From a virus (Duplodnaviria; Caudoviricetes), in IMG/VR virus record IMGVR_UViG_3300025909_000005: DNA of 64,000 nucleotides; one strand, written 5' to 3'. Numbering within the stretch: the first letter of the stretch is position 1; each line of letters opens with the position of its first letter. This document shows positions 4,211 to 52,990 of the stretch, piece after piece. The position numbers and the translations under genes were made by a program. The notes under the pieces were generated by a model, which searched no databases, was not told the origin of the DNA, and saw nothing but the letters and a program-made list of their open reading frames with translations.

Positions 4211-4608
4211 AGCTCGGCCAACTCCACGAAGCGAGTGCGCTGTCACGAATCAAGGACAGTGTGCCTCATGATACGGTAGTTGCGCATCAGACATTCTGGG
4301 CAACGGCGCGCGCCGACTACATGAACCTGCTTGTCAAGATGATTGAGAGTGCCGGCTTTACAGATGCAGAGTCTGACTTCAAAGACGATGCAGCAACCTT
4401 CAGCGGTGATACCATCGAAGCCAAGCTGCATGGTACGTATCCCGTTTATTTCCATCTCTCAGAGTCAGGTGCAAGTTTTGTTGAGGTAGAAGCAGTCCTG
4501 TTTGGTGGTGAACACGTGTTCAGACAGAGGAATGTCAAGGACCTGAAGAAGTGCTTCGCTGAAATCGAGAGCTATGCTCGAGTGAATGGACCCGACGAGG
4601 ACGACTGA
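4207..4608 (+). CDS. Hypothetical protein, MKLGQLHEAS tag
   Basis: ATGA overlap; tag similar to 14559 and 44469. Confidence 0.55.
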   Translation: MKLGQLHEASALSRIKDSVPHDTVVAHQTFWATARADYMNLLVKMIESAGFTDAESDFKDDAATFSGDTIEAKLHGTYPVYFHLSESGASFVEVEAVLFGGEHVFRQRNVKDLKKCFAEIESYARVNGPDEDD

Positions 4609-5294
4609 TGATCCTAAGTGAAGTTGTCGACATTCACGATGTCAACTCCTCTGCTGAAAAGTGGGGCGACCTCATCGTCAAGAACTGCAAGCCGTTCCTT
4701 GCACTGGCTGGTGGCAAGCCGCTCTACCGTGGCATCCACCGCAGCAACATTGGTGGCCTGGCAACAATCACACCTCGCACTGATCGCAAGCCAATGGACA
4801 CAAAGCCCGAGGTTCAAAAGGGACTTGACAGGTACTTCGAGAAGAAGTATGGCGTCAAGCCCCGCACAGAAGGTCTGTTCACGACAGGTGACAGTCACAA
4901 CGCTGCCTCCTTCGGCCAGGTCTGCTACCTCTTCCCGCTTGGGGAGTTCAAGTACTTCTGGTTCTACGACAAGCGGTTCAAGGAAGTTCTTCGTGACACG
5001 GTCCGACTGACGCGCCACATTCGCCTTCGTGGTGATGCGCGCATCTACGACCGCGAGGACAGTGAGGAAGAACAGGAAGACCTGGCCGACTTCATTAGCC
5101 ACACGTTCAGCAAGGACGGCCCGTTTGAGATTCGTACAGACAACTTCAAGCAGGCACTGCAGTCTGGCGCGGAAATCATCGTTGTCTGCCGGCGCGCCTA
5201 TGCCGTTCCTCGCTACATTGGTGGCGACAATGGACAGGGCTTCTTTGAAGTTCACTACGACACGCTGATCCACCCTGAGGATTACCAAGAGTAA
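4608..5294 (+). CDS. Member of a five-gene paralog family, ADP-ribosyltransferase-like
   Basis: CKPFL..LYRG, TEGLFTTG, ASFGQVCYLFP, SGAEIIVVC shared with 37069, 37737, 48814, 52310. Confidence 0.5.
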   Translation: MILSEVVDIHDVNSSAEKWGDLIVKNCKPFLALAGGKPLYRGIHRSNIGGLATITPRTDRKPMDTKPEVQKGLDRYFEKKYGVKPRTEGLFTTGDSHNAASFGQVCYLFPLGEFKYFWFYDKRFKEVLRDTVRLTRHIRLRGDARIYDREDSEEEQEDLADFISHTFSKDGPFEIRTDNFKQALQSGAEIIVVCRRAYAVPRYIGGDNGQGFFEVHYDTLIHPEDYQE

Positions 5295-5301
5295 ATCGGT
5301 G

Positions 5302-5310
5302 TGTTACAAT
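5302..5310 (+). promoter_or_regulatory. Extended -10 sigma70-type promoter (TGtTACAAT)
   Basis: TG 5302-5303, TACAAT 5305-5310; AGGAG at 5322. Confidence 0.5.
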
Positions 5311-5331
5311 AGCTCTTTAGCAGGAGCGTAT

Positions 5332-5622
5332 GTGAACGGAAAACAAGCAAAGCGACTTCGTCGTGCGGCCCTCGGTCTGGCTGCAACCCTCGACCAGAAC
5401 GGCAAGAAGATCCACAAGGACGGTCACGTCGTGCAAGAGCACCGCGTGTACAGCCCTTCCTCAATCTCGGCGCAGTTCAGCTCTGACCCGGCGGCTCAAC
5501 GAGATGTAGAGCCACCAACCATCTCCTACACCGTTCACAATCGTCCTGACTCCCTTCGCGCGCTCTATCGCACGATCAAGAAGGGTGTCGTCACCGGCAA
5601 GATCAAGAACCCGCCGAAGTGA
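5332..5622 (+). CDS. Hypothetical basic protein
   Basis: GTG start after AGGAG; MNGKQAKRLRRAA. Confidence 0.55.
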   Translation: MNGKQAKRLRRAALGLAATLDQNGKKIHKDGHVVQEHRVYSPSSISAQFSSDPAAQRDVEPPTISYTVHNRPDSLRALYRTIKKGVVTGKIKNPPK

Positions 5623-6857
5623 TTTACAAGGTCTCCTCGACCAAGCAGCTGCACTTCTCTGATCCGCTCCATGTGGGGCGGTTCTACCCACATGCGCAGC
5701 GTGTGCACCAAGGGAAGATGCAGGAACGCCAAGACCTGATCCTCTACCTCGCGAGCATTCACGAGGCGGCGATCAAGTCTGGCATGCCTCGTGGTTTCTG
5801 TCGGATTCCGATGCGGCTCACGAGTCTGAAGGAATGGGTGCACGACTACAAGGGTGCGTTCAATCACTTCTTCACGATCGTCGAGTCAGGCTACCACATC
5901 GGCGATGATTGGCAGTACAGCGTCATCATCCCGAACGAGCTGCCACGGGATCCTGACTTCGAGCACACCGAGCGGAAACTCGTGTACGTTCCACCTCCAG
6001 TCCCCGCTCAGGGTGTCGTGTCGAAGGTGTTCGTGCAGGTGCAGAAGAAGGAGCCCATCCTCAAGAAGCTGGCCACGAACAACCGCCTGGACCTCTACGC
6101 TCCAGTCGAGTGGCTCCTGTCCCAGCCAACCAACGAGTTCAACTTCTACTTCATCCCATCTGGGAAGCTGCAGATGCGGGATACCTCGATCTGGCCAATC
6201 GCGGCCATCGAGACCTGGCCCTCGTGGCTGCGTGAGGATCTCTTTGGCCCTGGCATTGACATCGAGGCCGCGTACACCCAGTTCCTGATCGAGGGAGTTC
6301 GCAAGGCATACGAGAAGGAACCGGACATGGTTCGGATTCTCTACCCAGACCTGCTGCGTTCACTCGAGGACAAGACGCAGTGGCGCCGAGAGATCTGTGA
6401 AGATGTGCTCGGCATGGAGTGGAATGACCACAGCGTGGGCGTGGTGAAGAAGATCTGCATGAGCCTGGCCAACGGTTCAAAGATCTCACCTGGGATCCTG
6501 CTCTCGGAGATGGGTCACTCAATGACTCGCAACATTATCCTCGAAGAGTCGGCAGACGTGACTGCAAGCAAACTGATCCACATCGGTCAACGGCTCCTCA
6601 CCATTTCACGACAGTACTCCGCAGCAAAGAAGGTGGTGTGCAGGTGGGAGCTCGGCTTGGCACCAACCAGGGCCAACCAGAAGAAGGTCTTCGCTGGCTA
6701 CTTCGAGTGGGAACGTGAGGCGCGCTACAAGATCTGGGAAAGTGTTGGGAGACACGGGATCATGGTGCACGATGGGATCGACGGCATTCCTGAAGAGGAG
6801 CTCAGCCGAATCCCTGAGATCATTTCGAGCTTGAACTTGAAGCTGACCCGCTCTTAG
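5619..6857 (+). CDS. Family-A polymerase-like protein (palm/fingers only)
   Basis: SGKLQMR..., IDIEAAYTQFL (motif A-like), KKICMSLANG (motif B-like), MVHDGID (motif C-like). Confidence 0.45.
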   Translation: MIYKVSSTKQLHFSDPLHVGRFYPHAQRVHQGKMQERQDLILYLASIHEAAIKSGMPRGFCRIPMRLTSLKEWVHDYKGAFNHFFTIVESGYHIGDDWQYSVIIPNELPRDPDFEHTERKLVYVPPPVPAQGVVSKVFVQVQKKEPILKKLATNNRLDLYAPVEWLLSQPTNEFNFYFIPSGKLQMRDTSIWPIAAIETWPSWLREDLFGPGIDIEAAYTQFLIEGVRKAYEKEPDMVRILYPDLLRSLEDKTQWRREICEDVLGMEWNDHSVGVVKKICMSLANGSKISPGILLSEMGHSMTRNIILEESADVTASKLIHIGQRLLTISRQYSAAKKVVCRWELGLAPTRANQKKVFAGYFEWEREARYKIWESVGRHGIMVHDGIDGIPEEELSRIPEIISSLNLKLTRS

Positions 6858-7215
6858 ACGGGAAGATCATCACGAAGCGGTACCGGTCGGAGTGCGTGAA
6901 CTTCTGACCGGTTACCTTCACGTCTGAGTTCTGCTTCTTGATGAGATCGAGGTACTGCTTCATGCGCACGTCGGCGATCGGCGGGCTCTTTGGCGTGATT
7001 AGAGTTACCACAGCCTCGTAGTGAAACTTGTCAGGGCTACGAGGATCCTCAACCTTGACCCTCACATAGGACTGGAATGACAAACCCTTAATCTGCCTTG
7101 CGAGCATGCGAAGGGTGTACTCGGCCTTGTGCGGGTCTGACAGTGACGTGGTGACGTCATCGTAGTGGCCCTTAAGCTTGTCAAGGGCTTCGAGGAATTG
7201 GCGGAAGGTTTGCAT
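6820..7215 (-). CDS. Putative internal head protein, MQTFRQFLE tag
   Basis: CTS-like N-terminus; TAAATA on minus strand (7222-7227) 6 nt before ATG. Confidence 0.6.
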   Translation of the reverse strand: MQTFRQFLEALDKLKGHYDDVTTSLSDPHKAEYTLRMLARQIKGLSFQSYVRVKVEDPRSPDKFHYEAVVTLITPKSPPIADVRMKQYLDLIKKQNSDVKVTGQKFTHSDRYRFVMIFPSKSGSASSSSSK

Positions 7216-7219
7216 TGGT

Positions 7220-7243
7220 GCTATTTAGCCACTAATGCTATTA
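7220..7243. repeat. 24-bp dispersed repeat, copy 1 (contains a minus-strand late promoter)
   Basis: GCTATTTAGCCACTAATGCTATTA, 23/24 identical to 32363-32386. Confidence 0.85.
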
Positions 7244-7252
7244 CCCGTGCGC

Positions 7253-7576
7253 TCACCACTGCTGCGGGTCTTCAATCTCAACCCAGTGCTTCGCGTCTTT
7301 TTTGTAGATGAAGTGAGTTGAACTAGTTCGATCAACCTCAGTTCCGTCGGGTTTGTATGTCTCGTCGTTTCCGAAGCCCTTACGCTGCCCGATCCAGCCC
7401 TCGAGATGATAGAGGGAGTTCCATTGGTCGTACCACGCATGGATCGTGAATTGAGAAGGCTCGTACTTGCCGACCGCCAAGCACCATTCAGCCATGCGTT
7501 TGCGGAACTTCGCAGCCATCCCGGCTGGAAGCTTGGTCGGTGGCTCTACAGTCTTGGCAAGGTCTTTGAGTTTCAT
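7253..7576 (-). CDS. Hypothetical late protein, MKLKDLAK start
   Basis: Minus-strand TAAATA at 7582-7587, 5 nt before ATG. Confidence 0.6.
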   Translation of the reverse strand: MKLKDLAKTVEPPTKLPAGMAAKFRKRMAEWCLAVGKYEPSQFTIHAWYDQWNSLYHLEGWIGQRKGFGNDETYKPDGTEVDRTSSTHFIYKKDAKHWVEIEDPQQW

Positions 7577-7590
7577 GCCGGTATTTAGGA

Positions 7591-7815
7591 TCAGTAGACC
7601 GGGAACGTTGCCTTTGACGCCGCCTCAAGGCGTTTGTTGACGAAGGCAACAGCCAGGTCTCTCTCCAGCGGCGTCATCTCAAGAACGGTCTCATACGGCC
7701 AGGCACCGCGAGAGAAGTAGGAGACCTCCAGCGCGGTCTGGAGCAGGTTGCGTGTGTCGATACCCAGAGTCGTGATCATTTCGGCGATCCTGCTCTCATC
7801 GCCGGACATGATCAT
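7591..7815 (-). CDS. Baseplate hub assembly protein (T4 gp51-like)
   Basis: EVSYFSRGAWPYETVLEMTPLERDLAVAFVNKRLE; ATG 7815 overlaps the stop of the gp26-like gene. Confidence 0.6.
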   Translation of the reverse strand: MIMSGDESRIAEMITTLGIDTRNLLQTALEVSYFSRGAWPYETVLEMTPLERDLAVAFVNKRLEAASKATFPVY

Positions 7816-8657
7816 TCTGTGAAAAAAGAGATCGGGTTGACCGGGAGGTCGACCTTCATGTCCTTCTTGCAGTCCTTGCAACAGAGCGTGACAGTCTGTG
7901 ATGGACCCCAGGTGTTTGTCTTCTCGATGGTCTCTGTGATCCGGTTCTGCCAAGGAGTCGTGATGCCGGAAACCCACTCACGAATCTGCTTCTTGTCTTC
8001 GATCCCGTCCACTGACTTGATCAGTGAGGTCAGGGTTACGACGACGTTCTCCTTGATGTCTTCAGTCTCAAACTTCTTCTTGCCTGCGTTCAGGTGGAAG
8101 AGCTTGATCATGTGAGCGAACTTCACAGGTTCGACCTTTACAACCTGTCCGTTGGGAAGCGTGCAGGTGTACTCCTCTTCGATCGTGGTTGGGTCCAGCA
8201 TCGGCATGTTCATGACGAGCTGCTCGATGTTCACGGAGTAGCCGTGCTCGGTGTGCTTGACCTTCTCAGAGCCATCTGGGAGGGTGAGCGTCTTCTTGGA
8301 CTCCTCGCAGTCGTGCGTGACTTGAATGTCGAAGTTCGGTCCATACGTCACCAACCTGAGGAAGTACATGATCGCGTCGATGTCGCGGCCGTAGAGCTCC
8401 GTTGCCTTCTTGATCTGCGGGATGCACTCAGCGAAGACACGCTCGATCGCCTTGCCGTTGAACAGGGTGTCTGGGTTCTTCAGGTCAATCTCAGCGAGAG
8501 CTGAGAGGGCGTGAACGTGGATCTCACCCTCCGACGCGTCGATCTCACCGTTCTTGTACAGAGCACCACGGGATGGGAGCTGAAACGTCTTGCCAGGAAG
8601 CTTGATCTTGGCAAGAAGCGGGTTTGTTGTGTCCATCTGGGGTTTCTCCAATGTCAT
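7812..8657 (-). CDS. gp26: Baseplate hub subunit (T4 gp26-like)
   Basis: KLPGKTFQLPSRG.LY, DIDAIMYFLRLVTYGP, C-terminal CKDC; start uncertain (8657 or 8636). Confidence 0.75.
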   Translation of the reverse strand: MTLEKPQMDTTNPLLAKIKLPGKTFQLPSRGALYKNGEIDASEGEIHVHALSALAEIDLKNPDTLFNGKAIERVFAECIPQIKKATELYGRDIDAIMYFLRLVTYGPNFDIQVTHDCEESKKTLTLPDGSEKVKHTEHGYSVNIEQLVMNMPMLDPTTIEEEYTCTLPNGQVVKVEPVKFAHMIKLFHLNAGKKKFETEDIKENVVVTLTSLIKSVDGIEDKKQIREWVSGITTPWQNRITETIEKTNTWGPSQTVTLCCKDCKKDMKVDLPVNPISFFTE

Positions 8658-8686
8658 AAATATGTCTCTCAGGATCATGATATTTA
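8657..8686. promoter_or_regulatory. Two face-to-face late promoters
   Basis: TAAATA on + at 8657-8662 and on - at 8681-8686, between divergent genes. Confidence 0.6.
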
Positions 8687-8723
8687 CGCACTGGGCCAAA
8701 CGCCCGCCGGGACACCCATCAGG

Positions 8724-11522: not shown

Positions 11523-11531
11523 GGAACGCCC

Positions 11532-13268
11532 TTGGCACAGCTCCAAAACTACTGGCGCATTATTACGCCAGCATCACGTAAGCAGTTGTATACGACACTG
11601 TCGGTAGACGCCTACGATCCGCGCACCACTGACAACTCGTCGATGACGTCCGTGCAGTGGTACTCACAGGTTCTTCGTGGTCTAGGTACTCGTCAAGCGA
11701 ACTACAAGCAGTACGATGCCATGGACATGGACATCGACATCAACCGCTCTCTCGACATCATCGCTGAGGAAATGTCTGGCAAGGACGAGAAGACCGGTTT
11801 GCCGTTCGAGATCGAGTACCAGAAGGAAGACAACCAAGACATCAGCGACACGACTGCTGTCACCCTTCGCCAGGCTGTCCGCCAGTGGTCGTCCACGCAG
11901 GACCTGAACAAGCGCATCTTCTCGATCGCCCGTCAGATGGTCAAGTACGGTGACTGCTTCTTCCGCAAGGTCTCTGACACTCAGAAGTGGGCGGCCGTTG
12001 ATCCATCTCTGGTGCACGGCATTGAGATCGACATGCTCGGCAACAAGATCGCCTATCACTTGAAGAAGCCAACGAACAACACGTTCTACGGTTCCAAGAA
12101 CGAGCAGATGGAAGTGGTGCCAGCCTCGGCCATGATTCACTTCACGCTGTCTGACGACATGGGCGACTCAGCACCGTTCGGTAACTCCGTGCTCCGCCCA
12201 ATTCACCGCGTCTACCGCCAGCTCTCCATGCTGGAAGACGCCGTCATCATCTACCGCATCGTTCGCGCACCTGAGCGTCGCCTGTTCTACATCGACGTCG
12301 GCAACATGCCACCTCAGCGCGTGAAGCAGTACCTCGAACAGATCAAGAACGAGATGCGACAGAAGCGGATCCCGGGTGTGAACGGTGGCAAGGACACCGT
12401 CGACGGTCAGCTTGACCCAATGTCCATTCAGGAAGACATGTTCTTCCCTGTCACCGCAGGTGGCCGTGGCTCACGCGTTGAGACCCTGCCTGGCGGCACT
12501 GAGGACTTCGGTACGAACCTGATCAAGCTGTTCCAAGACAAGATCTTCCGCGGTCTCCGCATCCCAACCTCGTACATGACTGGTACGGATGGTCAGGGTG
12601 CGCAGTACAACGACGGCAAGGTCGGTATTGCCTACATCGAGGAACTGCGCTTCGCTCAGTTCATTCGTCGTATGCAGGACCGCCTCGATGAGATCTTCGA
12701 CGAAGAGTTCAAGATCTACCTGAAGGTTCTCGGTCTGAAGGTCGATGATGAGATCTTCCGCATCAAGCTCCCAGATCCAGCCAATTTCGCCCTGTACCGT
12801 CAGGCCGCCCTTGACGCTGACCTGATTGGTTCGTTCAACAACATTGCCGCTGAGAAGACCTTGAGCCGCCGCTTCATCCTGAAGCGCTACCTCGGCCTGA
12901 CCGACGACGAGATCCAGATGAACGAAGTGATGCTCAAGGAAGAGCGTGGCATCCTCGAGAACGCCAACATCCCATCGATCCAGCAGATGTACGACCCAGC
13001 CGTCTACGACAACCGTGAAGCTCTCACGGTCGAGGCTGCGTCTCCTGATGCTCCTCAAGGTTCTGGCCCATCGGCCGGTGGAGATGAGGGCGGTGGTGGC
13101 GGTGGAGGAGGCGGGGAGACCGGCTTCTTCGATGAGACCGGTGGCGGTGGAGGTGAAGAAGGTGGTGGAGGTGGAGGTGGAGGTGAAGAAGCCGCTCCTG
13201 AAACTGGAGGCGCCCCAACTCCTGCACCTGCTCCGGCCCCAGCAACAGCACCTGGCCCATCGGCATGA
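11532..13268 (+). CDS. gp20: Portal protein (T4 gp20-like) with Gly/Glu/Pro low-complexity tail
   Basis: LSMLEDAVIIYRIVRAPERRLFYIDVGNMPPQRVKQYL, GRGSRVETLPGG, RGLRIPTSY, YIEELRFAQFIRRMQ. Confidence 0.95.
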   Translation: MAQLQNYWRIITPASRKQLYTTLSVDAYDPRTTDNSSMTSVQWYSQVLRGLGTRQANYKQYDAMDMDIDINRSLDIIAEEMSGKDEKTGLPFEIEYQKEDNQDISDTTAVTLRQAVRQWSSTQDLNKRIFSIARQMVKYGDCFFRKVSDTQKWAAVDPSLVHGIEIDMLGNKIAYHLKKPTNNTFYGSKNEQMEVVPASAMIHFTLSDDMGDSAPFGNSVLRPIHRVYRQLSMLEDAVIIYRIVRAPERRLFYIDVGNMPPQRVKQYLEQIKNEMRQKRIPGVNGGKDTVDGQLDPMSIQEDMFFPVTAGGRGSRVETLPGGTEDFGTNLIKLFQDKIFRGLRIPTSYMTGTDGQGAQYNDGKVGIAYIEELRFAQFIRRMQDRLDEIFDEEFKIYLKVLGLKVDDEIFRIKLPDPANFALYRQAALDADLIGSFNNIAAEKTLSRRFILKRYLGLTDDEIQMNEVMLKEERGILENANIPSIQQMYDPAVYDNREALTVEAASPDAPQGSGPSAGGDEGGGGGGGGGETGFFDETGGGGGEEGGGGGGGGEEAAPETGGAPTPAPAPAPATAPGPSA

Positions 13269-13702: not shown

Positions 13703-13706
13703 TCCA

Positions 13707-13712: not shown

Positions 13713-13738
13713 CGGGATCTAACCCAGAAGGAATAAGC

Positions 13739-14359
13739 ATGAAGTCCATCCTCCTCGTTGAAGACCTGACCCCAGTTCAGACCGCTCTTCGCGAACAACG
13801 TACCGCCTCTGGCGAGCTCTTCCTGAACGGCATCATGATGCAGTCTGAGCTCAAGAACGGCAACGGCCGTGTCTACCCATTGGCTGAGATCTCCCGTGCG
13901 GTGGACGAAGCTGCAAAGCGAATCGCCGAAGGCAACCCGATCATGGGCGAGCTGAACCACCCTGACGTTCTCTCGATCAACCTGGACCGCGTCTCGCACA
14001 TCATCACCGAGGTCCGCATGGACGGCAACAACGCCATCGGCAAGATGAAGCTCCTGAACACCCCAACTGGCCAGATCGCCCGCGGTCTGATCGAAGGTGG
14101 TGCACGTCTAGGTGTCTCTTCCCGTGGTACCGGCAACGTGAACGAATCTGGCGCGGTCTCTGACTTTGCCTTCGTAACTGTCGACATCGTTTCCCAGCCA
14201 TCGGCACCTGACGCCTACCCGAACGTGGTTCGTGAGGCCATGGAGAACAAGAAGATCCTGAGCCTGGCAGAAGCCGTCGTTCACGATCCGAAGGCACAGG
14301 CCTACTTCAAGAAGGAAATGTCCCTGTTCCTCGAGGCCATCACCAAGGGTAAGAAGTGA
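13739..14359 (+). CDS. gp21: Prohead core protease (T4 gp21-like)
   Basis: NGNGRVYP, GELNHP, GVSSRGTG, TVDIVSQPSAPDAY. Confidence 0.95.
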   Translation: MKSILLVEDLTPVQTALREQRTASGELFLNGIMMQSELKNGNGRVYPLAEISRAVDEAAKRIAEGNPIMGELNHPDVLSINLDRVSHIITEVRMDGNNAIGKMKLLNTPTGQIARGLIEGGARLGVSSRGTGNVNESGAVSDFAFVTVDIVSQPSAPDAYPNVVREAMENKKILSLAEAVVHDPKAQAYFKKEMSLFLEAITKGKK

Positions 14360-17024: not shown

Positions 17025-18293
17025 ATGACACTTATCGAAAACTGGTCTGAGACCAAAGAGGCCCTGCTCGAAGGACTCTCCGGCTCGAAGCGCACCATCG
17101 TCGCGACTCTGATGGAAAATCAGAAGAAGATCTTCGAAACGGCACCGGCTAACGCTGTCGTTTCTGCGGACGTAGCAACGTTCCAGAAGATCATGATTCC
17201 GATGATCCGCCGTATCATCCCTGGCACGATCGGCGGCGAGCTCGTCGGCGTTCAGCCAATGACCGGCCCAACGGGTCTGATCTACACGCTGCGTTTCGCA
17301 TTCGCAGAACCAGTTGATGCCCCAGGCACGCTGCACGACATCACGCCAGGTGACGAAGCTTTCGTCTACAACGGCAAGATGAAGCGCTTCTACTCGGCTG
17401 CCAATGTCGGCACCGCTGGCTACCCACCAAGCCTCACGGCCAACACGTCTGACGGTTTCGCCGCCAAGACTGAGGACTACGAAGGTTACGGCGGTCGTCA
17501 GATGCGCCTCTCCGTTCTGAAGCAAGCTGTCAACGTTGGCACCCGCAAGCTGCAAGCTCGCTGGACCATGGAAGCTGCGCAGGACATGAACGCACAGCAC
17601 GGCATCGACATCGAAAGCGAACTGACTGCAGCTCTCGCCGCTGAAATCGCCCACGAAATCGACAACGAAATCCTGACCGACCTGCTCGCTCTGGCTTCGA
17701 CGACGGCTACGTACGACTTCGCAAACCCAGCTCCAGGCTTCTCGCCGAACTACATCGGCGACCGTTACGCTGAACTCGGTATCCTGATCAACCAGATGGC
17801 CAACGAAATTGGTGCACGCACCAAGCGCGGTCCTGGTAACTGGATCGTCGGCGGTCACCTGATCACCTCCATCCTCCAATCCGGTTCGCGCTCGGTCTTC
17901 GCACCAGCAATCTCCGGTACGTTCGATGCTCCAACCGGCAACCGCCTGGTTGGTACCCTCAACGGTGGTATCAAGGTCTACACCTACAACTGGGGTCTGA
18001 ACGACAACTACGACTGGATGTCCGGTGGCGTGAACACTGCATCCGGCTCGACCGGTGAAGACGTTCTGATCGGTTACAAGGGCGGCAACTCGGAGCTCGA
18101 CTCCGGTTACTTCTACTGCCCATACGTGCCGCTCATGAGCACCGGCCAGGTCATGGACGCCAACACGTTCATGCCAGCAGTTTCGCTCTCGACTCGTTAC
18201 GGCAAGGCAACGTTCACGAACGCTGCAACGTCGTTCGGTAACTCCGCTGATTACTACGCTCGCGTACTGGTCCGCAACGTCGCTTTCTCGTAA
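17025..18293 (+). CDS. gp23: Major capsid protein (T4 gp23-like)
   Basis: ELVGVQPMTGPTGLIYTLRF, RKLQARWTMEAAQD, EIDNEIL, GYFYCPYVPL, TRYG. Confidence 0.97.
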   Translation: MTLIENWSETKEALLEGLSGSKRTIVATLMENQKKIFETAPANAVVSADVATFQKIMIPMIRRIIPGTIGGELVGVQPMTGPTGLIYTLRFAFAEPVDAPGTLHDITPGDEAFVYNGKMKRFYSAANVGTAGYPPSLTANTSDGFAAKTEDYEGYGGRQMRLSVLKQAVNVGTRKLQARWTMEAAQDMNAQHGIDIESELTAALAAEIAHEIDNEILTDLLALASTTATYDFANPAPGFSPNYIGDRYAELGILINQMANEIGARTKRGPGNWIVGGHLITSILQSGSRSVFAPAISGTFDAPTGNRLVGTLNGGIKVYTYNWGLNDNYDWMSGGVNTASGSTGEDVLIGYKGGNSELDSGYFYCPYVPLMSTGQVMDANTFMPAVSLSTRYGKATFTNAATSFGNSADYYARVLVRNVAFS

Positions 18294-33124: not shown

Positions 33125-33170
33125 GCTGGCTCCTTCTGTTACAGTTGATCCGATTATACATCAGAGCCCA

Positions 33171-33198
33171 TAAATAGTCGATCGAAAAGTGGATCGAC
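33171..33198 (+). promoter_or_regulatory. Late promoter TAAATA plus perfect 7-bp hairpin
   Basis: TAAATA 33171-33176; GTCGATC 33177-33183 / GATCGAC 33192-33198; ATG 33201. Confidence 0.7.
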
Positions 33199-33200
33199 AC

Positions 33201-35132: not shown

Positions 35133-37072
35133 TGGCTGATCCAAATAAGTCACTGTACGAACCAACGGAACATCGAACCACTCTCGATGAGTGCGCAGAT
35201 GCGGCCGGCTCGTTCAACAACCCGAACACACCAAACTCGGGCCTGCCACCGATTCCAGCTGGCACTATTCCAAGCCCAGGTGGTGGTGTTGTCACGCCTC
35301 CAAACGTCTACGTTCCACCTGACATCTGCATTGGTGACTTCACCATCTCGCAGAACGAGTGTGCGATCAACGATAGCAACTACCAGCAGTCACTCGCTGC
35401 TCAGCAGTTGGCCATCTCTGGTGCACCGCTGAACGTTTTCAAGCTGCTCGGCAATCATGAACAGGGAAAGCTGATTGACCTCGTTGGTCACGGCCACGCA
35501 ATTGGCTCTGACGATACCTCAATGGCCTTCGACGAGCTTGCTGGTGAGTGGACCTCCTCAGTCACCGGCCTCGCTGTCACGCAGACGCCTGCCTATGTTG
35601 GCTACGATTTCGGCTACCGCCTCACGTCTTACGGCCAGCTTGAGAACGCCAAGGGACAGCCGGCAGACCAGCACATCACCTCGATCCGAATCACACAGGG
35701 TCCAGACGCCAACACCCGCGCCCTTCAAGTTCGTGTCGATCGCTCTGACGGTGACTTCATCATGGGCACGCCGATCTACACCGCGACTGGTAACGGCACG
35801 GTCACTCGCTTCAGCCAAGGCATTGACACCAAGCCAGGCGCGTTCATGCTCTTCGCGACGTCGCCTACCAAGTTCAGCGTCATGTGGACCGGAAATGGCA
35901 CCTACATTCTAGGTGACGCCACAGTCGGTCAGATGTTTGACTCCAAGCACGGCTCGTTCGTCATCGCTCCTGGCACCATTCCATTTGCTGCAGGCGACGC
36001 CATCTCGGTGCCCATCCAGCTCGAGTGGAAGCGCGTTGACGTAGTGAACCTTCCGAACGTTGCAACTCCTGCCCTGATTCGTATCAAGCAGTCGGCACCA
36101 TCTCGCTTCTGGCGCATCGTCCCGACCTCATTTGCTGGTGTAACCACGAACTCTCCTTGGGTCGTTGAGAAGCTCGAGCTCTTTGACTACCAAGCCACGA
36201 TGCTCACGGACATCCAGGACCCGCTGTTCATGGAGAACCGAGACCGCGACTACGCGAAGACCTCCATCCAGCTGAAGGTTGCCTACACTCCATTTGACGC
36301 GGTCTCTGACCTCACGAAGTTCGGCTTCCAGGTCGCAGACATCTACAGCTTCACGACGACCTTCGCCACCATGGTTGAAGCTCTAGGCCGCCCAATTGTT
36401 GTTGGTGACGTGCTTGAGCTTCCATCCGAGATGCAGTGGGACCAGAACATGCGTCCCGTTCGCAAGTTCCTCGAGGTCACTGACGGTGGCTGGGCAGCGG
36501 ACGGCTACACCACAGGCTGGCAGCCAATCATCTACCGCTTCCAGGCGCAGCAGCTCATCCCAGGTCAGGAGCACCGTGACCTGCTTGGCACCCTTGACAC
36601 GCAGAAGTACGTCGTCGATGACGGCCGCTTCTTTGATGGCATCGAACAGATCTCCACTGGCTACCTCACGGCCATGGAGAACAACGAAGCTGAAGCTCGC
36701 AAGGCAGTTCCAGAAACGGGCACGAACGTTCGTGAAGCCGCCTCTGGTACGAATCGCTTTAACCAGCCCGGCTCCTACGACGGCGTTGGCGTCTACGTCG
36801 AGGACGGTCTGCCACCAGATGGCCATGAATACAAGACAGGCTTCGACAAGCTGCCGGATGTCGCTGAGGCCAACGACGGCGACTACTTCCGCCTGGAGTA
36901 CTCACCTGAGCGCAACCTTCCAGCTCGCCTCTACAAGTTCAGTGGAGTCAAGAACCGCTGGATCTTTGTTGAGACTGACCGTCGCAACCAGCGTTCGTCG
37001 CACACCCCATCACAGCGCGAAATCTTTGCTCTTGACAAGCAGTTCTCGCCAACAGCCAAGAAGATCTCATGA
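35132..37072 (+). CDS. gp14: Neck protein (T4 gp14-like) with inserted beta-sandwich domains
   Basis: ISGAPLNVFKL, ENRDRDY, DLTKFG, GRPIVVGDVLELP; follows gp13. Confidence 0.7.
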   Translation: MADPNKSLYEPTEHRTTLDECADAAGSFNNPNTPNSGLPPIPAGTIPSPGGGVVTPPNVYVPPDICIGDFTISQNECAINDSNYQQSLAAQQLAISGAPLNVFKLLGNHEQGKLIDLVGHGHAIGSDDTSMAFDELAGEWTSSVTGLAVTQTPAYVGYDFGYRLTSYGQLENAKGQPADQHITSIRITQGPDANTRALQVRVDRSDGDFIMGTPIYTATGNGTVTRFSQGIDTKPGAFMLFATSPTKFSVMWTGNGTYILGDATVGQMFDSKHGSFVIAPGTIPFAAGDAISVPIQLEWKRVDVVNLPNVATPALIRIKQSAPSRFWRIVPTSFAGVTTNSPWVVEKLELFDYQATMLTDIQDPLFMENRDRDYAKTSIQLKVAYTPFDAVSDLTKFGFQVADIYSFTTTFATMVEALGRPIVVGDVLELPSEMQWDQNMRPVRKFLEVTDGGWAADGYTTGWQPIIYRFQAQQLIPGQEHRDLLGTLDTQKYVVDDGRFFDGIEQISTGYLTAMENNEAEARKAVPETGTNVREAASGTNRFNQPGSYDGVGVYVEDGLPPDGHEYKTGFDKLPDVAEANDGDYFRLEYSPERNLPARLYKFSGVKNRWIFVETDRRNQRSSHTPSQREIFALDKQFSPTAKKIS

Positions 37073-37740
37073 TCACCTTCAAGCAATTTCTACTTGAGCA
37101 GGACGACCCTGATCTCTTCCAAGTCCTTGAGCGCGATTGCGCTGACTTCCTGCATCAGTCGCAGCGGGTAGGACTGATCTATCGTGGCATTCAAGAGACG
37201 TCTCTTGCCAACCACCATGACTACGCTATCCACGATGCTGGGCACCATGGCCCCATTGAGATGTGGGAAAAGCTCGTCAAGGGTCAGGGTGGTCGATCAA
37301 GTCGCCGGCCTCGTGATTCAAGCTCGTCACAGCACGATGCAGCTGATGCTTGGTTCGAACAGAAGTTTGGTGTCTACGCCCGCTCAAAGTCACTGTTCGC
37401 TAGTGGAAACAAGCACGCCCTCTCTGACTACGGTGACACCTACATCGTGTTGCCAAAGGGCCACATGAACGTCATCTGGTCCCCGAAGGTTGATGACATG
37501 TACGGCCACTTTGAGACTGGAGAATGGGGCAAGATTCGTCAGGGACTCCGGATGGGTTCCGTTTCTGAAGAGGAATTTTGGCACCAAATTGGCATGGACC
37601 TCGACGATCAGGACTACCGTGAAGGTGACCTTCCAGCAGGTATCAAGTCAGGCAACGAGCTCATGATTCAGTGCAACTCGTACTACATCATTCCAGTCGC
37701 TGATGAAGCAGCGATAAAGCGCGGGCTCAAGATCGAATGA
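37069..37740 (+). CDS. ART-like paralog with MITFKQFLLE tag
   Basis: IYRG, RSKSLFASG, YGDTYIVLP, SGNELMIQC. Confidence 0.5.
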   Translation: MITFKQFLLEQDDPDLFQVLERDCADFLHQSQRVGLIYRGIQETSLANHHDYAIHDAGHHGPIEMWEKLVKGQGGRSSRRPRDSSSSQHDAADAWFEQKFGVYARSKSLFASGNKHALSDYGDTYIVLPKGHMNVIWSPKVDDMYGHFETGEWGKIRQGLRMGSVSEEEFWHQIGMDLDDQDYREGDLPAGIKSGNELMIQCNSYYIIPVADEAAIKRGLKIE

Positions 37741-38366
37741 AGACGTTCAAGCAGTTCATTTCTGAGGCGCAGTTCGATGACATCGATGCGGCCGTAGATG
37801 AGATCCTCCACCACTGTGGACCATTTCTTCATGAGTCTCGTCGCAAGGGTTTCCTGCAGCGTGGCATGCAGGGACTTGACCTTACGCCGTGGGATGACAA
37901 GTCGGTCCCATACGTTATCAAGAAGGTGAACAAAGAACGCGTACCACGTCGAGGTGCCGGCCTGAACGCCATCGAGCACAAGGTCGTTGACGACTTCCTC
38001 CACGACAAGCTCGGCATTCGTGGTCGTTCTCAGGCGATGTTCTGCATTGGCCAGTCTGAGAAGGGAACGCAGAAGGCCAGCCAGTTTGGTACGCCGTACA
38101 TCGTCTTCCCGATCGGTGACTTCAAGTACGTGTGGTCGCCTGAGGTCTTTGACATCTTTGGCCAGCTTCACTACAAGAGTGAGGACCCTGAAGAGCAGAA
38201 GAAAGAGATTGAGACCTGGCTGGAGGGCAAGAAGTACCGCACGACGGGCCTTGATCAGGCGGTGAAGTCTGCGAATGAGATCATGATCGACTGCGAGACG
38301 TACTACGTCTTCAGTAAATACATGTGGGCCCACAAATTCCGAACAAAACTAGGCATCGGCCTCTGA
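37737..38366 (+). CDS. ART-like paralog with MKTFKQFISE tag
   Basis: LQRG, RSQAMFCIG, FGTPYIVFP, SANEIMIDC. Confidence 0.5.
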   Translation: MKTFKQFISEAQFDDIDAAVDEILHHCGPFLHESRRKGFLQRGMQGLDLTPWDDKSVPYVIKKVNKERVPRRGAGLNAIEHKVVDDFLHDKLGIRGRSQAMFCIGQSEKGTQKASQFGTPYIVFPIGDFKYVWSPEVFDIFGQLHYKSEDPEEQKKEIETWLEGKKYRTTGLDQAVKSANEIMIDCETYYVFSKYMWAHKFRTKLGIGL

Positions 38367-43812: not shown

Positions 43813-43831
43813 GCTCGAAAGAGCTTCTGAG

Positions 43832-43853
43832 AAGGGATCCCGTGGGATCCCTT
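43832..43853 (+). terminator. Hairpin terminator
   Basis: AAGGGATCC-CGTG-GGATCCCTT then TGTTG. Confidence 0.7.
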
Positions 43854-43881
43854 TGTTGTATAATGGGCTGTAAATATGACC

Positions 43882-45374: not shown

Positions 45375-45383
45375 CCGGCCACA

Positions 45384-45412
45384 TAAATAGAGGATACCTA
45401 TGGGACCTCTAT
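45384..45412 (+). promoter_or_regulatory. Late promoter TAAATA plus hairpin covering the start codon
   Basis: TAAATA 45384-45389; ATAGAGG 45387-45393 / CCTCTAT 45406-45412. Confidence 0.65.
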
Positions 45413-47598: not shown

Positions 47599-48086
47599 TG
47601 AACCCAAAGCCAAAGTCAGACAACCCGATGCTCAGCAACGACAAGAAGCTGACGAACCCTCTGGACGAGCTCTTCAACACAGCCCAGTCTGAGGAGGTCG
47701 TTGAGTACGAACAGGTCACTGAAGGTGAGCTCGCCGAGATGGCAGAGCCAGAGAAGCCAACGAAGGACGAGGAAGACGTTGAGATCGATGCCAAGATCGA
47801 CACTGTCTACACCGCGGCCATCGATGCCTTCAACCAGCAGACGGCCTACACCGAGATCATCGAGCCTCGCTACGCAGCTCGCAATGCTGAAGTCGCCGCA
47901 AACTACCTGAACATCGCCCTCAACGCCGCCGCCACCCGTGCCCGCGTCAAGGGAGACCGTGCTCGCACGGCGAACTTCGTACCATACGCCAACGGCGGTC
48001 GAAACACCAACAACGTCGTCGTTGCCTCTCGTGAAGAAATCATGAAGATGATCAGCGTGGATGCGGACGTGAAAGAGATCAAGTGA
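47595..48086 (+). CDS. Probable terminase small subunit (T4 gp16-like)
   Basis: Helical core ARNAEVAANYLNIALNAA; C-terminal NNVVVASREEIMKMI. Confidence 0.6.
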   Translation: MMNPKPKSDNPMLSNDKKLTNPLDELFNTAQSEEVVEYEQVTEGELAEMAEPEKPTKDEEDVEIDAKIDTVYTAAIDAFNQQTAYTEIIEPRYAARNAEVAANYLNIALNAAATRARVKGDRARTANFVPYANGGRNTNNVVVASREEIMKMISVDADVKEIK

Positions 48087-48817
48087 TCACCTTCAAGCAG
48101 TTCCTTGCTGAGGCTGAAGTTGCTGGCGTCTATGTCAAGGGCCCACTGAACGTTATCTCCTCATTGATCAAGGACAAATTCAGCCTGGACTGGAGCAAGA
48201 TCTCAATGACCTGCTTGGCAGCTCAATTCGTCTTCGCGCTTGAAGCTGCTACGGATCTTCCAGCGCAGCAGCTCGTGTGGGCTGGTGAGAGAAACTTCCC
48301 TCGCATGTCAACGAGCTCGGCCACATTTGAGCAGCTCTTCAATGCGTTCAACAACAAGCCGCTCAAGCTTCGCGATGGGCGAGTTGTTACGTTCAAGCTC
48401 TCCTCACACAGCTTCACTACTCAGCAGGCAATTGAGCACGTCAAGCAGGGCATTCCTTCTGTGATGGTTGTTAACTCTGACATGGGTGATTGGGGCGGAT
48501 ACAACTACCTGACAGGTAAGGATGAGAATCCCGACTTTGAGAAGACTGGTCAGGTTTCGACAAAACACGTTCGAAAGCATAAGATCGAGGGCGGCGGGTA
48601 CTTCCACGCCCTTCTCCTTGTAGGCTATGATGAAGAATCAAAGGAGTTAATCCTTCGAGAATCACGTAGCTCGTATGGTTTCAAGGGCTACCTCAAAATT
48701 CCGGCGAAGGCCGCTACCTTCAAGCACACGCGCTTCATTGCGACGATCGTTGATTCCTACAAGATCAAGGATCCAAAGCCATCTAAGAACGACGACCACT
48801 TTGCGCAAGCCGCATGA
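48083..48817 (+). CDS. Papain-like (C1-type) cysteine peptidase with MITFKQFLAE tag
   Basis: SMTCLAAQFVFALE, FHALLLVGYD, LILRESRSSYGFKGYLKIP. Confidence 0.65.
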   Translation: MITFKQFLAEAEVAGVYVKGPLNVISSLIKDKFSLDWSKISMTCLAAQFVFALEAATDLPAQQLVWAGERNFPRMSTSSATFEQLFNAFNNKPLKLRDGRVVTFKLSSHSFTTQQAIEHVKQGIPSVMVVNSDMGDWGGYNYLTGKDENPDFEKTGQVSTKHVRKHKIEGGGYFHALLLVGYDEESKELILRESRSSYGFKGYLKIPAKAATFKHTRFIATIVDSYKIKDPKPSKNDDHFAQAA

Positions 48818-49626
48818 TCACCTTCAAACAATACCTTCAAGAGGCGCGCTACCGGACCGACATCAGCGAGGAGCGAGCCATCGACCTCCTCAAGGCAAAC
48901 TGCAGCGACGCCTTGAAGCACATCGATACGCCTCTCATTCGTGCTTCCAAGCGAAGCAGCGAACAGGCGTACATCATGCATGGCGAGCTTGGCGAACGGC
49001 AGTCTGCGTGGTCTCGAAGCAACTTCTACACCATCACTCTGGATGAGGTCAATGGCCCACAGGGTTACCCATTGCGTTCCAAGTCGGTCATCTTCGGCAA
49101 CTGGGCAAATTGGGAGAGCATGGATCATTACGCAAAGGCAGGCGGCATGTACGCGCTGTTCCCCTACGACGGCGTCAAGATTGGTGTTACGCCTAAGTGG
49201 GACCTTTGGGAAGGGCCCGCTTTTAAAATCGGTCATGGAACTCGCAGGCGCCAATTGAACGGTTGGAACAACTTCTTCCGTGCCTTGCACCTCGATGATT
49301 CCTCATATGAGGCGTTTGTTTCATCCATTGAAACTGCCATCAAGAACGAGGATGAATGGGCTGATGAACATGAGATCAAGGACGAGGACAAGGACGAGCT
49401 TGACGAACTTGTTGAGATGTTCGACAATGGTAAGGTTGATGAACAGCTTCACCGAGCATACGACGCCAAAAACCAGGACTTTGATCTTGTTGACACGCAC
49501 CTAATTTACGACATCTCCGGCACTCATGAGTGCTGGACAAGTGGGAAGTGTATTGCGTGGCGTCTAGGAAATAGCCGTGATGATGCAGAGAGCTCCCTTG
49601 CAAACCTGAAGGAGATGCTGAAGTGA
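48814..49626 (+). CDS. Divergent ART-like paralog with MITFKQYLQE tag
   Basis: PLIRA, RSKSVIF, YALFP, SGTHECW. Confidence 0.45.
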   Translation: MITFKQYLQEARYRTDISEERAIDLLKANCSDALKHIDTPLIRASKRSSEQAYIMHGELGERQSAWSRSNFYTITLDEVNGPQGYPLRSKSVIFGNWANWESMDHYAKAGGMYALFPYDGVKIGVTPKWDLWEGPAFKIGHGTRRRQLNGWNNFFRALHLDDSSYEAFVSSIETAIKNEDEWADEHEIKDEDKDELDELVEMFDNGKVDEQLHRAYDAKNQDFDLVDTHLIYDISGTHECWTSGKCIAWRLGNSRDDAESSLANLKEMLK

Positions 49627-50000
49627 TTACCTTCAAGCAGTTTCTAGAAGGGCTGAAGGACCTGGCGAAAGATGCTGATGAGAACCCACCCATTGTGCCT
49701 GTCGTTATGCTTGACGTTCTCAAGTCTCAGGCCGAGAAAAGCAAGTACAAAATGCAGATCACCAATGCCGATCCTAAGAAGGCCGAGCTGCACTTTGAGT
49801 ATCGAGATGAGAATCACATCACTCTGATGACAAGCGTGTTCTTCTACCCTGATAGAACGTCCATGCAATGGGGACGCTGGGGCGGCGGGCACTCAGGAAA
49901 CCAGTCCTTCGATCACAGCGAGTACGGCACGCCTACCGAACTGGCGCGTGTCATCCTTCATCGACTTCACTACGTGGCAGATCTTCTGTACGGACAATGA
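49623..50000 (+). CDS. Putative internal head protein, MITFKQFLE tag
   Basis: GTGA overlap; EGLKDLAK. Confidence 0.6.
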   Translation: MITFKQFLEGLKDLAKDADENPPIVPVVMLDVLKSQAEKSKYKMQITNADPKKAELHFEYRDENHITLMTSVFFYPDRTSMQWGRWGGGHSGNQSFDHSEYGTPTELARVILHRLHYVADLLYGQ

Positions 50001-50737
50001 TCACCTTCAAACAATTCATCGATGAGAGCACCAACGACAAGGGCGTCCTCAAGGCCATCTTCGTCGTGGGTATTCCTGGTGCAGGCAAGACCTACACCAT
50101 TTCCCAAATCAACGGCCGCATCGCACCAAAGCTGGTCACGATGGACACAGCTGCTGAGTACCTGATCAAGAAGCTGGGCATCCCATCGACTGACGAGACC
50201 TGGCCAAAGATCGTCGACACAGCTCGCAAGATGACACTTGGATCCCTCTACTCCTACGTGAATGGCGTGCTGCCCCTTTTCGTCGACGGAACCCTCAACG
50301 ACATCTCAAACGTTCAGTCGCGCATCAATATTCTTGAGGACATTGGCTACGACATCGGCATGGTCTACGTGCACGCTGACCTGTACACTGCGAAGTCCCG
50401 GGCTGTAGCGCGGGCAAAGGTGAATGGTCGCCACGTCTCCGACGACTTCATTGAGAAGACGCACGCTGTCTCCGAGAAGAACAAGGAGCTGTTCATGAAC
50501 CGCTTCTCGTTCTACAAGGAGGTTGACAACAGCTCGGGCGCCATGGACAATGAGGCGCTGCTGAAGATCTACCGGGCCGCTCAGGGTTTCTACAGTGAGC
50601 CAGTAAAGAACGAACGTGGTCAAGGAGTCCTTGAGAAGCTTAAGAGCGAGAAGCAGGGCTACCTCGTACCGACGATCTATCAGAAGGAAGACCTTGCCGA
50701 AAAATTGGCTGGCTGGTACAAGGGCGGACGTAAATAA
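49997..50737 (+). CDS. Zeta-toxin/AAA_33-like P-loop kinase with MITFKQFIDE tag
   Basis: FVVGIPGAGKT, LFVDGT, GYDIGMVYV, ARAKVNGRHV. Confidence 0.75.
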   Translation: MITFKQFIDESTNDKGVLKAIFVVGIPGAGKTYTISQINGRIAPKLVTMDTAAEYLIKKLGIPSTDETWPKIVDTARKMTLGSLYSYVNGVLPLFVDGTLNDISNVQSRINILEDIGYDIGMVYVHADLYTAKSRAVARAKVNGRHVSDDFIEKTHAVSEKNKELFMNRFSFYKEVDNSSGAMDNEALLKIYRAAQGFYSEPVKNERGQGVLEKLKSEKQGYLVPTIYQKEDLAEKLAGWYKGGRK

Positions 50738-51548: not shown

Positions 51549-51559
51549 CGAAAGCAATC

Positions 51560-51925
51560 ATGAGTTTCACTGACCTGATGTCCTACCTTCTTTACGCGGA
51601 GGTGGCGACGCAAAAGATGCACTGGAAGTCAAAGTCGTTCGCTCGCCACGTTGCGCTGGGTGACATGTACGAGGCCATGGTTGACATCGTTGACGAGCTC
51701 AATGAGATCTGGATGGGCAAGTACGGAAATGAAACTCCCATTCCTACTAAGGACTGGAACGCAGATATGACCTCCGAAAAGAGCTACATAGATCAGATGT
51801 TCGCGACCCTTGAGGCCTTCCACGGATTGGTCTTTCAGGATGGCGATGACTATATCAAGAACAAGTTCGAGGAACTACAGGCGGTCGTCGCCCGAGCGAA
51901 ATACAAGATTGATAACCTGGTGTAA
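51560..51925 (+). CDS. Ferritin/Dps-like four-helix protein (DUF5856-like)
   Basis: KMHWKSKSFARHVALGDMYE..DELNEIWMGKYG; NKFEEL..KYK. Confidence 0.65.
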   Translation: MSFTDLMSYLLYAEVATQKMHWKSKSFARHVALGDMYEAMVDIVDELNEIWMGKYGNETPIPTKDWNADMTSEKSYIDQMFATLEAFHGLVFQDGDDYIKNKFEELQAVVARAKYKIDNLV

Positions 51926-51942
51926 ATTCCACGAAAGGAACG

Positions 51943-52197
51943 ATGATGGGTATTCTGAAGAAAGTGTTGATTGCCGGTGCAGGTGCAGCGGCATCCTATT
52001 ACGCAACCAAGTGGGTCGCGCAGCTGCTTGAAGAGAAGCCGCTCGACCAACGCCTGGCCGACCTGCAAAAGATGGCGGAGGTCTACACGACCGCTGCCAA
52101 GGACGCAGGTACTGATGCAGTTGAAAAGACGATGGGCAAGAAGGACGAGCTTATCGAGGGTCTGCAAAAGTACCTGGACAGTCTGAAGAGCCAGTGA
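51943..52197 (+). CDS. Small membrane-anchored protein
   Basis: AAAGGA SD; ILKKVLIAGAGAAASYY. Confidence 0.55.
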   Translation: MMGILKKVLIAGAGAAASYYATKWVAQLLEEKPLDQRLADLQKMAEVYTTAAKDAGTDAVEKTMGKKDELIEGLQKYLDSLKSQ

Positions 52198-52313
52198 TGC
52201 TCCGCACGATCGGCAAGGTAATCGCCGGTGTGGCTGCTACGGCAGCTACGACCTACCTGGGGAAGCGCTTTCTCCAGTGGGCCGGCGTCATCAAGAAACC
52301 TCCGCAAAAGTGA
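52197..52313 (+). CDS. 38-aa amphipathic peptide (absent from ORF track)
   Basis: MLRTIGKVIAGVAATAATTYLGKRFLQWAGVIKKPPQK; overlaps both neighbours' stop/start. Confidence 0.55.
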   Translation: MLRTIGKVIAGVAATAATTYLGKRFLQWAGVIKKPPQK

Positions 52314-52990
52314 TCACCTTCAAGCAGTTCCTGAACGAAACGACGGTCGAAAAGTACTCCACGGATCTAGAAGAAATTGTGGACCTCATTCAGCAGGACT
52401 GCCAGCCATTCCTGCGCGAGGCCGGCGACTACGCGCTCTTCCGCGGGTTCAGGGGCCGACGAGGCTTGACTGATGATCACGGCCACCACATTGGGCCCAT
52501 CTACTGGCTCAAGGCAACTCCACGCACTGACCGTCGGCCACTTGACTCGTATAAGCTGGCTCATGACCTCATGGACGACTGGTTCGAGAAGAACTACGGT
52601 GTGCGCGCTCGGTCTGAGGGCGTCTTTTGCGCTCCTCGTCAGGCTCAGGCTGCTTCGTATGGGCGCGCCTTCTACGTCTTTCCAATTGGCAACTTCAAGG
52701 TTCTCTGGGCCAGCCACGATGTGGCTGGAACGAGCGGCGTCAAGGACACTGCAAGCCTCTCAGATTCCATCTACAGGTTTGCTGAGACCGTGGAGCCGGA
52801 CAAGCAGGCCGACGTTGCTGACCGCGTCATGACGAACCACAATCACTGGCATGAAGGCAACGTGAAGAAGGCAGTCCAGTCTGATGCCGAGATCACGCTC
52901 ATCTGCGACAAGTACTACGCCGTGGCCTGTGGGCCAAATGTACACTACACTGACCTCATTTCTGGAAAACAGTTGCCCCGTGAAGAGTAA
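52310..52990 (+). CDS. ART-like paralog with MITFKQFLNE tag
   Basis: LFRG, RSEGVFCAP, ASYGRAFYVFP, SDAEITLIC; GTG start. Confidence 0.5.
   Translation: MITFKQFLNETTVEKYSTDLEEIVDLIQQDCQPFLREAGDYALFRGFRGRRGLTDDHGHHIGPIYWLKATPRTDRRPLDSYKLAHDLMDDWFEKNYGVRARSEGVFCAPRQAQAASYGRAFYVFPIGNFKVLWASHDVAGTSGVKDTASLSDSIYRFAETVEPDKQADVADRVMTNHNHWHEGNVKKAVQSDAEITLICDKYYAVACGPNVHYTDLISGKQLPREE

Follow-up and report, generated by a model that had tools for sequence, protein, structure and literature searches.

The giant T4-like phage of virus record IMGVR_UViG_3300025909_000005 (Duplodnaviria; Caudoviricetes) carries, in the stretch of 64,000 nucleotides analysed here (the window, which is part of a 376.6-kb contig), five dispersed open reading frames (ORFs) that are true paralogs and that belong to a widespread, almost exclusively viral protein family without a name. 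The predicted fold of these proteins is that of the NAD-using ADP-ribosyltransferases (ARTs), and most of the copies start with a short leader of the type by which bacteriophage T4 loads proteins into its head. Because of this combination of a predicted ART fold and a T4-type head-loading leader, the copies are probably enzymes that are injected together with the DNA. To the whole chain of events that can be envisaged, in which ART-fold enzymes are made late, packaged by means of their leader, processed by a gp21-type protease, ejected and used to ADP-ribosylate host targets, we give a somewhat better than even chance of being correct.

All five ORFs lie on the + strand. Paralog 1 (4608..5294, 228 amino acids (aa)) belongs to the main subfamily, matches phrog_11975 at 5.9e-25 and the family profile described below with an E-value of 9e-45, and has a degenerate or short leader, MILSE. 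Paralog 2 (37069..37740, 223 aa, leader MITFKQFLLE, phrog_11975 at 2.5e-25, family profile 2e-53) has a start codon overlapping the stop of an upstream structural gene of the neck module (35132-37072), and paralog 3 (37737..38366, 209 aa, leader MKTFKQFISE, phrog_11975 at 1.6e-26, family profile 7e-50) is directly followed on its 3' side by the gene for a gp15-like tail sheath stabiliser (38368-39171). Paralog 4 (48814..49626, 270 aa, leader MITFKQYLQE, family profile 1e-8) represents a divergent subfamily, phrog_12810. Paralog 5 (52310..52990, 226 aa, leader (V/M)ITFKQFLNE, phrog_11975 at 2.9e-28) uses a GTG start, located within a longer ORF that opens at 52277.

The relatedness of the five copies is evident from three comparisons. 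Alignment with MAFFT gave 21-38% pairwise identity to paralog 1, with the columns C27, R41, R60, R86, P110 and W118 common to all five. A family profile, built from unrelated database homologues of paralog 5, returned exactly five matches and nothing else when applied to the 858 six-frame ORFs of the window, with E-values of 1e-45 to 1e-54 for four copies and 1e-8 for the copy at 48814-49626. The subfamily of the latter, which is assigned to phrog_12810 while the other four copies fall in phrog_11975, was linked to the main family by hhalign with a probability of 99.1% (E 1.6e-18). The five alignable ORFs that a first-pass annotation of this DNA had proposed, at the same positions and by eye, are thus confirmed. 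Since all five retain the invariant residues of the family (C27, R41, R60, R86, P110, D130, E189 and C194 in paralog 1; C30, R43, R62, R88-S89, P117, D130 and E239 in paralog 4; C31, R45-G46, R75, R101-S102, Y117, P125, D146, E194 and C199 in paralog 5), no copy looks decayed. The same annotation had remarked that an Arg and a Glu are kept even in the most divergent copy, and indeed R43 and E239 of paralog 4 align with R45 and E194 of the family and are both invariant within their own subfamily.

None of the copies or homologues could be assigned to a family by searches of Pfam, NCBIfam and PDB sequences, and the only PHROG matches were to unnamed groups (11975, 15932 and 12810). The family is nevertheless large: a profile search of 1.84 billion representatives found 7,734 clusters (50% identity) at E ≤0.001, with 2,478 at ≤1e-30, and the Atlas clusters of the family are 96-100% viral. 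In an alignment of 137 homologues with a mean column identity of 17%, the residues R75, R101, P125, D146 and E194 (numbering of paralog 5) are invariant, and C31, R45, G46, P77, S102, F106, Y117, G118, C199 and Y202 are at least 90% conserved. The motifs noticed by eye in the five copies reappear in these diverse homologues as the conserved blocks C-x-P-F-L, L-Y-R-G, R-x-D-R-x-P-x-D, F-G-x-x-x-R-S-x-G-V-F, Y-G...F-P-I-G-x-F-K-x-x-W-S and E-I-M-x-x-C-x-x-Y-Y. The spacing of blocks is fixed, with 25 residues between R75 and R101 and 8 between E194 and Y203, and the divergent loops that had been suggested are found as two insert regions, hypervariable in length and sequence, which comprise 15-42 aa between R45 and R75 and 34-131 aa between D146 and E194. 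Invariant polar residues and fixed spacing at a mean identity of 17% make this an enzyme-like pattern. The databases also contain giant members, the longest of 2,645 aa, in which the domain is repeated two to five times in tandem. They are perhaps polyvalent or polyprotein versions of the same cargo, and their sequences show no further Pfam domain that hints at a function. T4 itself has no member of the family.

The proposal that the proteins have an ART fold is backed by structure prediction for two subfamilies that share about 20% identity. AlphaFold2 models of paralog 5 (from 137 sequences) and paralog 4 (from 148 sequences) had pLDDT values of 86.7 and 93.6 and pTM values of 0.84 and 0.87, respectively. 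Both models display the same order of elements, consisting of a pair of N-terminal helices, a strand with R-G at its end, a hairpin/helix region, a strand, a two-strand hairpin with F-P-I-G, a helical insert and two last strands, the first of which is opened by the invariant Glu. In an exhaustive VIA-align search of 48,161 PDB representatives, the best matches of both models were structures of the ART superfamily, which supplied 43 of the best 50 rows with one model and 12 of the best 50 with the other. Many distant ART families are represented among these matches, which cover the whole beta core with 88-134 aligned residues, and the nearest structures are Arr, BC2332 (PDB 2aua) and proteins on the diphtheria-toxin/PARP side. 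The BC2332 structure reproduces a diphtheria-toxin-like active site (PMC3024214). Two weaker, independent leads point the same way. A shape search of the Atlas returned ART-PolyVal, Tse2-ART and DRAT, and with the second model it gave no ART row. In the independent feature-based search of the Atlas, DUF2441, a member of the Pfam ART clan (PMC7955679), was the best of the clusters that carry a Pfam assignment, tied with an unnamed cluster, at a score of 0.84 that lies below the reliability line of 0.9. These models predict that the family has the split beta-sheet core of the ARTs. The resemblance might instead be a chance likeness of a small alpha/beta fold that serves some other activity, which we consider very improbable in view of the number and diversity of the ART matches, their extension over the whole core, their recovery from two such distant subfamilies and the outcome of the feature-based search.

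The predicted secondary structure also allows a candidate active site to be outlined. In ARTs, a catalytic His or Arg is located on strand 1 and a Glu at strand 5. In the family, the first core strand closes with [YF]-R45-G46, and E194 is located at the beginning of the penultimate one, so that R45 and E194, judging from the models, may well correspond in position to these two residues. In paralog 5 the candidate strand-1 Arg, which is suggested by conservation and predicted secondary structure, is encoded at 52442-52444 (+), and the candidate catalytic Glu at 52889..52891 (+). The first-pass annotation had spoken of the R-S-E type of ART; this class is not established because the nearest structures lie on the Arr, BC2332 and H-Y-E side, and neither S-T-S nor E-x-E is found. 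In its likeness to known motifs, the Arg-Gly of the family is no nearer to the Tyr-Arg of R-S-E toxins than to the His-Gly found in Arr, diphtheria toxin, PARP and Tpt1. The further invariant residues R75, R101 and D146 have no counterpart in textbook ART triads.

Regarding delivery, the first-pass annotation considered all copies to be tagged for packaging, and this holds for the four copies with the full leader MxTFKQ[FY][LI]xE and fails for the copy at 4608, which starts with MILSEVVDI. In paralog 5 the ten leader codons occupy 52310..52339 (+) and end in [LI]-x-E, the predicted cut site of a prohead protease; equivalent leaders are encoded at 37069-37098, 37737-37766 and 48814-48843 (all +). 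The [LI]-x-E motif ends at residue 9 or 10 in 104 of the 137 homologues, as part of either a 10-mer, M-I-T-F-K-Q-F-[LI]-x-E (39/137), or a 9-mer, M-R-L-x-x-Y-[LI]-x-E (65/137). In T4 the capsid-targeting sequence is MKTYQEFIAE; the prohead protease makes a single cut in it, and fusion to this sequence leads to the encapsidation of any protein (PMC8442874). Such a targeting sequence is used by all internal head proteins of T4. Cleavage by gp21 is C-terminal to Glu, with T4 Alt processed at ITE-6 (PMC5694885).

The leader is not restricted to the family, as 22 ORFs of the window, from unrelated families, start with an xTFKQFLxE or MK[ILV]x[DE]L[LIH]E leader, compared to none in 20 shuffles. The leader codons vary at synonymous sites between genes, and therefore the peptide rather than a DNA repeat appears to be under selection. 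The leader-bearing starts span 173-52990 (e.g. 3207, 3815, 7215(-), 14885, 28410, 39155, 43882, 48083, 49623, 49997 and 50742), and the ORFs include a zeta-toxin/AAA_33 kinase (49997-50737), a weakly C39-like peptidase (48083-48817) and an amidoligase-like protein (39155-40603). At one of these sites the longest ORF is on the - strand (43252-44031); a 196-aa ORF on the + strand, which opens at 43882 with the leader MNLTFKEYLQEE just downstream of a TAAATA, is more likely to be the real gene.

A cultured phage in which members of this family are known from virions is Agrobacterium phage Atu_ph07. The profile search identified 11 members in its genome (E 1e-6 to 3e-45), ten of which are arranged in tandem at 42.5-50.3 kb and one of which is located at 304.8 kb. 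The tandem genes are gp54-gp63, as judged from the order of their accessions and checked by molecular weight, and the lone copy is gp355; the proteins start with MRWEQLTE or MKWHQLTE. All ten products of gp54-gp63 were detected in purified virions by electrospray tandem mass spectrometry (ESI-MS/MS), with 3-15 unique peptides and 12-46% coverage, as was gp53, a 778-aa protein with a zeta-toxin domain (PMC6102473 Table S5). The family is thus virion-associated in at least one real phage. The gp53 protein matches the AlphaFold model structurally via BFVD (E 8.5e-6). Phage RsoM2USA also has a copy of the family; its proteomics comprise ten gel bands only and are uninformative on this copy.

A second and distant relative, a metagenomic phage known from a 162-kb contig with 40% GC, has eight members within 20 kb (4422-18575), in the region of gp13, gp15, sheath and terminase and in slots syntenic with those of the window. 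Two of them separate gp13 from the next large structural gene, gp15 is preceded by four and followed by one, and the last is a neighbour of a zeta-type kinase gene. The first seven, in the gp13-to-gp15 slots, carry a MITFKQFL-type leader, in one case six residues in, and the eighth, near the kinase, lacks a leader at the called start. Two NUMOD3-type (homing-endonuclease-like) ORFs are located nearby. According to BFVD, many paralogs occur in the proteomes of other jumbo phages and uncultured phages. Together, the T4-like leader, the presence of a gp21-type protease gene in the window and the Atu_ph07 virion proteomics support the virion delivery that had been proposed from the sequence.

Several results weigh against the view that these proteins are packaged ARTs. 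Comparison of the models with Foldseek, which had been put forward as a check, yielded no significant match, and ARTs were absent from its results for the PDB and Swiss-Prot, with OspC-type ADP-riboxanases appearing only at E ~0.1-0.3; in AFDB clusters and BFVD, only uncharacterised relatives were found. No ART-clan Pfam model was matched in hmmscan searches of the five copies (E up to 1) and of the 137 homologues (E up to 10), and hhalign against a KptA/Tpt1 alignment gave a probability of just 0.2-0.3%. The canonical motifs H-x-T, H-G-[ST], STS and ExE are not present in the family, and the middle position of the triad is not nameable, the candidates being F-x-[TS]-G after the strand at 105-108, or Y117. 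On the side of delivery, the N-terminus of paralog 1 has L-S-E at residues 3-5 and no FKQF core, gp355, which is encoded apart from the array in Atu_ph07, is missing from the virion proteins detected in that phage (PMC6102473 Table S5), and with pI values of 5.0-7.2 the mature proteins range from acidic to neutral, unlike the basic internal proteins of T4.

Packaged ART-fold enzymes could perform other chemistry, such as acting on phosphates or bases of nucleic acids (as in Tpt1 and DarT), hydrolysing NAD+ or NAD-derived defence signals, or modifying a small molecule (as in Arr). We regard this as unlikely, since the hhalign comparison with KptA is not significant and since arrays of multiple copies with hypervariable inserts suit macromolecular targets better than one small substrate. 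A local alignment with KptA does set the L-Y-R-G of the family on the L-Y-H-G-T of that protein, and this link was rejected for the same lack of significance. It can also be imagined that the packaged proteins are ART-derived and non-catalytic, functioning as binders that inhibit host defence in the way of T4 IPI*, or as proteins that fill the head or organise the DNA. The internal proteins of T4 are diverse non-enzymatic defence inhibitors that share only the capsid-targeting sequence (PMC3012670), the canonical ART triads are not recognisable, and the many unique peptides per Atu_ph07 protein suit stoichiometric binders. Five invariant polar residues, with several others above 90%, at fixed spacing in 137 sequences of 17% identity are, however, typical of a catalytic or ligand-binding site and not of a binding surface engaged in an arms race, and the proteins are not basic, so that we consider such a role quite improbable.

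The genes of the five presumed enzymes are inside late structural operons, and most of them have an overlap of stop and start codons with a neighbouring gene. The window carries a T4-type morphogenesis module, which includes a gp20-type portal protein (11532..13268, +; phrog_213, 1.6e-88), a gp21-type prohead maturation protease (13739..14359, +; phrog_207, 2.2e-56), by which the leaders would be removed, and the major head protein (17025..18293, +; phrog_138, 1.9e-85). Further genes encode a gp13-like neck protein (33189-35132), the sheath (40693-42537), the tube (45411-46784), a gp4-like head completion protein (46784-47245) and the large terminase (54381-55937). When 10 kb of the DNA was compared by megablast to 50,697 phage records, no close relative came up.

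The motif ATAAATA, one base shorter than the T4 late promoter TATAAATA, occurs at 11 sites in the window (927-55953), all on the + strand and mostly 20-40 nt upstream of structural genes, where 0.63 sites were expected; TATAAATA itself was not found in the window. From its sequence and position, ATAAATA is likely to be the core of a late promoter. One such site (33170..33176, +) precedes the neck operon with paralogs 2 and 3, and another (45383-45389, +) the operon with paralog 4, while the shorter TAAATA is found ahead of the operon with paralog 1 (3172-3177) and upstream of paralog 5 (50731-50736).

For cleavage and packaging in this phage, and for ejection, NAD+ use and targets, we infer the following course of events. 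The genes would be transcribed together with the late structural genes, after which the leader of 9-10 residues (MxTFKQF[LI]xE in the window) would dock the protein to the scaffolding core of the prohead, like the T4 capsid-targeting sequence. The gp21-type protease would cleave after [LI]-x-Glu, and the mature proteins of 23-30 kDa would remain inside the head until they are ejected into the host together with the DNA. There, the strand-1 Arg-Gly, the Glu of the penultimate strand and two more invariant Arg residues would form the cleft in which NAD+ is bound, and ADP-ribose would be transferred to host macromolecules. The two hypervariable inserts, chiefly the helical insert that separates the invariant Asp from the invariant Glu, may choose the target, and targets may differ from paralog to paralog. 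A more far-reaching possibility, to which we assign a rather low probability, is that the family is a very large unrecognised ART clade with an Arg-rich site, made up of the strand-1 Arg-Gly, two other invariant Arg residues, Asp and Glu, which T4-like and jumbo phages load into heads in arrays of 5-11 diversified copies. The copies would then act on nucleic acids through their phosphates, or each would disable another defence protein of the host within seconds of the start of infection, and together they would provide an injected, combinatorial counter-defence.

It is useful to compare the family to systems that are better understood. T4 Alt is made late, has a short N-terminal propeptide that is cut by gp21 after a Glu, adopts an ART fold, is retained in the head (~40 copies) and is ejected with the DNA, in T4-like myoviruses (PMC5694885, PMC9503650). 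By analogy, the delivery strategy of the present family would be that of Alt. However, Alt, a protein of 682 aa, is a member of the R-S-E (Alt/VIP2) clade, whereas the members described here have 190-270 aa, lack STS and ExE, show no sequence similarity to ART-clan Pfam families, are closer to Arr, BC2332 and diphtheria toxin, and occur in arrays of 5-11. With the internal proteins of T4 the family shares a near-identical 10-residue leader ending in I/L-x-E, and the route of those proteins is loading onto the scaffolding core, a single gp21 cut and delivery with the DNA (PMC8442874, PMC3012670). They differ in being small, very basic and non-enzymatic, in contrast to the acidic-neutral proteins with enzyme-like invariant residues found here. 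As compared to Arr and BC2332, the family has Arg instead of His on strand 1 and possesses in addition an invariant Arg-Arg-Asp, a helical extension at the N-terminus in which a Cys is conserved, and a large insert of helical structure. No match to the Pfam models DUF2441 (PF10386) or Arr-ms was found among the 137 homologues, and PF10386 was likewise unmatched in Atu_ph07 and 14 control genomes.

Head-packaged ARTs were argued by Iyer et al. (2022) to be common in myoviruses and encoded beside head-morphogenesis genes, with injection as their predicted fate and with ~44% of phage ARTs found in such contexts (PMC9503650). The polyvalent and MuF-fused ARTs, which belong to 16 defined ART families, are fusions to MuF, portal or giant polyvalent proteins, whereas the family described here is stand-alone and has a T4-type leader that is predicted to be cleaved. 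The Atu_ph07 proteins gp54-gp63 and gp355 are true homologues with the same kind of leader. Their genes form a tandem array of ten, in contrast to the window copies, which are dispersed in neck, tail and terminase modules.

Some other genes of the window deserve mention. Two slightly overlapping ORFs, 53596-54396 (266 aa) and 54381-55937 (518 aa), both match large-terminase PHROGs, and these represent either a terminase paralog or fragment before the full gene, or a split gene. The fibre-like genes at 55984-59751 and 59764-60792 encode nearly the same N-terminus (MLTDGIQLLG[ST]S[TA]ATN...), which suggests alternative receptor-binding proteins on a common adaptor. A Dps/ferritin-like protein without leader (51560-51925; phrog_858, 6e-16) is encoded in the chain of cargo genes between the terminase genes. 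Between the portal and prohead protease genes, where T4 has gp67 and gp68, there is an ORF resembling GNAT acetyltransferases (13265-13702; phrog_1249, 4e-7).

In Atu_ph07, gp54-gp63 and gp355 are "hypothetical proteins", to which neither the record nor the paper gives a function or a fold; that the virion proteins gp54-gp63 belong to the present family is new. A stand-alone ART-fold family of 190-270 aa that occurs in arrays, is unrelated in sequence to defined ARTs and has a T4-type leader throughout likewise appears to be new, on the basis of predicted structures and of the systems compared above. The family has so far gone without a name, a Pfam or NCBIfam model or an assigned fold, in spite of its thousands of clusters and its arrays in giant phages. 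The leader itself provides a simple sequence rule for predicting injected cargo, which marks at least 22 ORFs in this window. If the ART assignment is correct, Atu_ph07, whose host is a laboratory Agrobacterium strain, would be a tractable system for studying host modification at the moment of DNA entry, and NAD-using effectors with diversified target inserts would account for much of the so far unexplained mass of internal proteins in T4-like jumbo phages.

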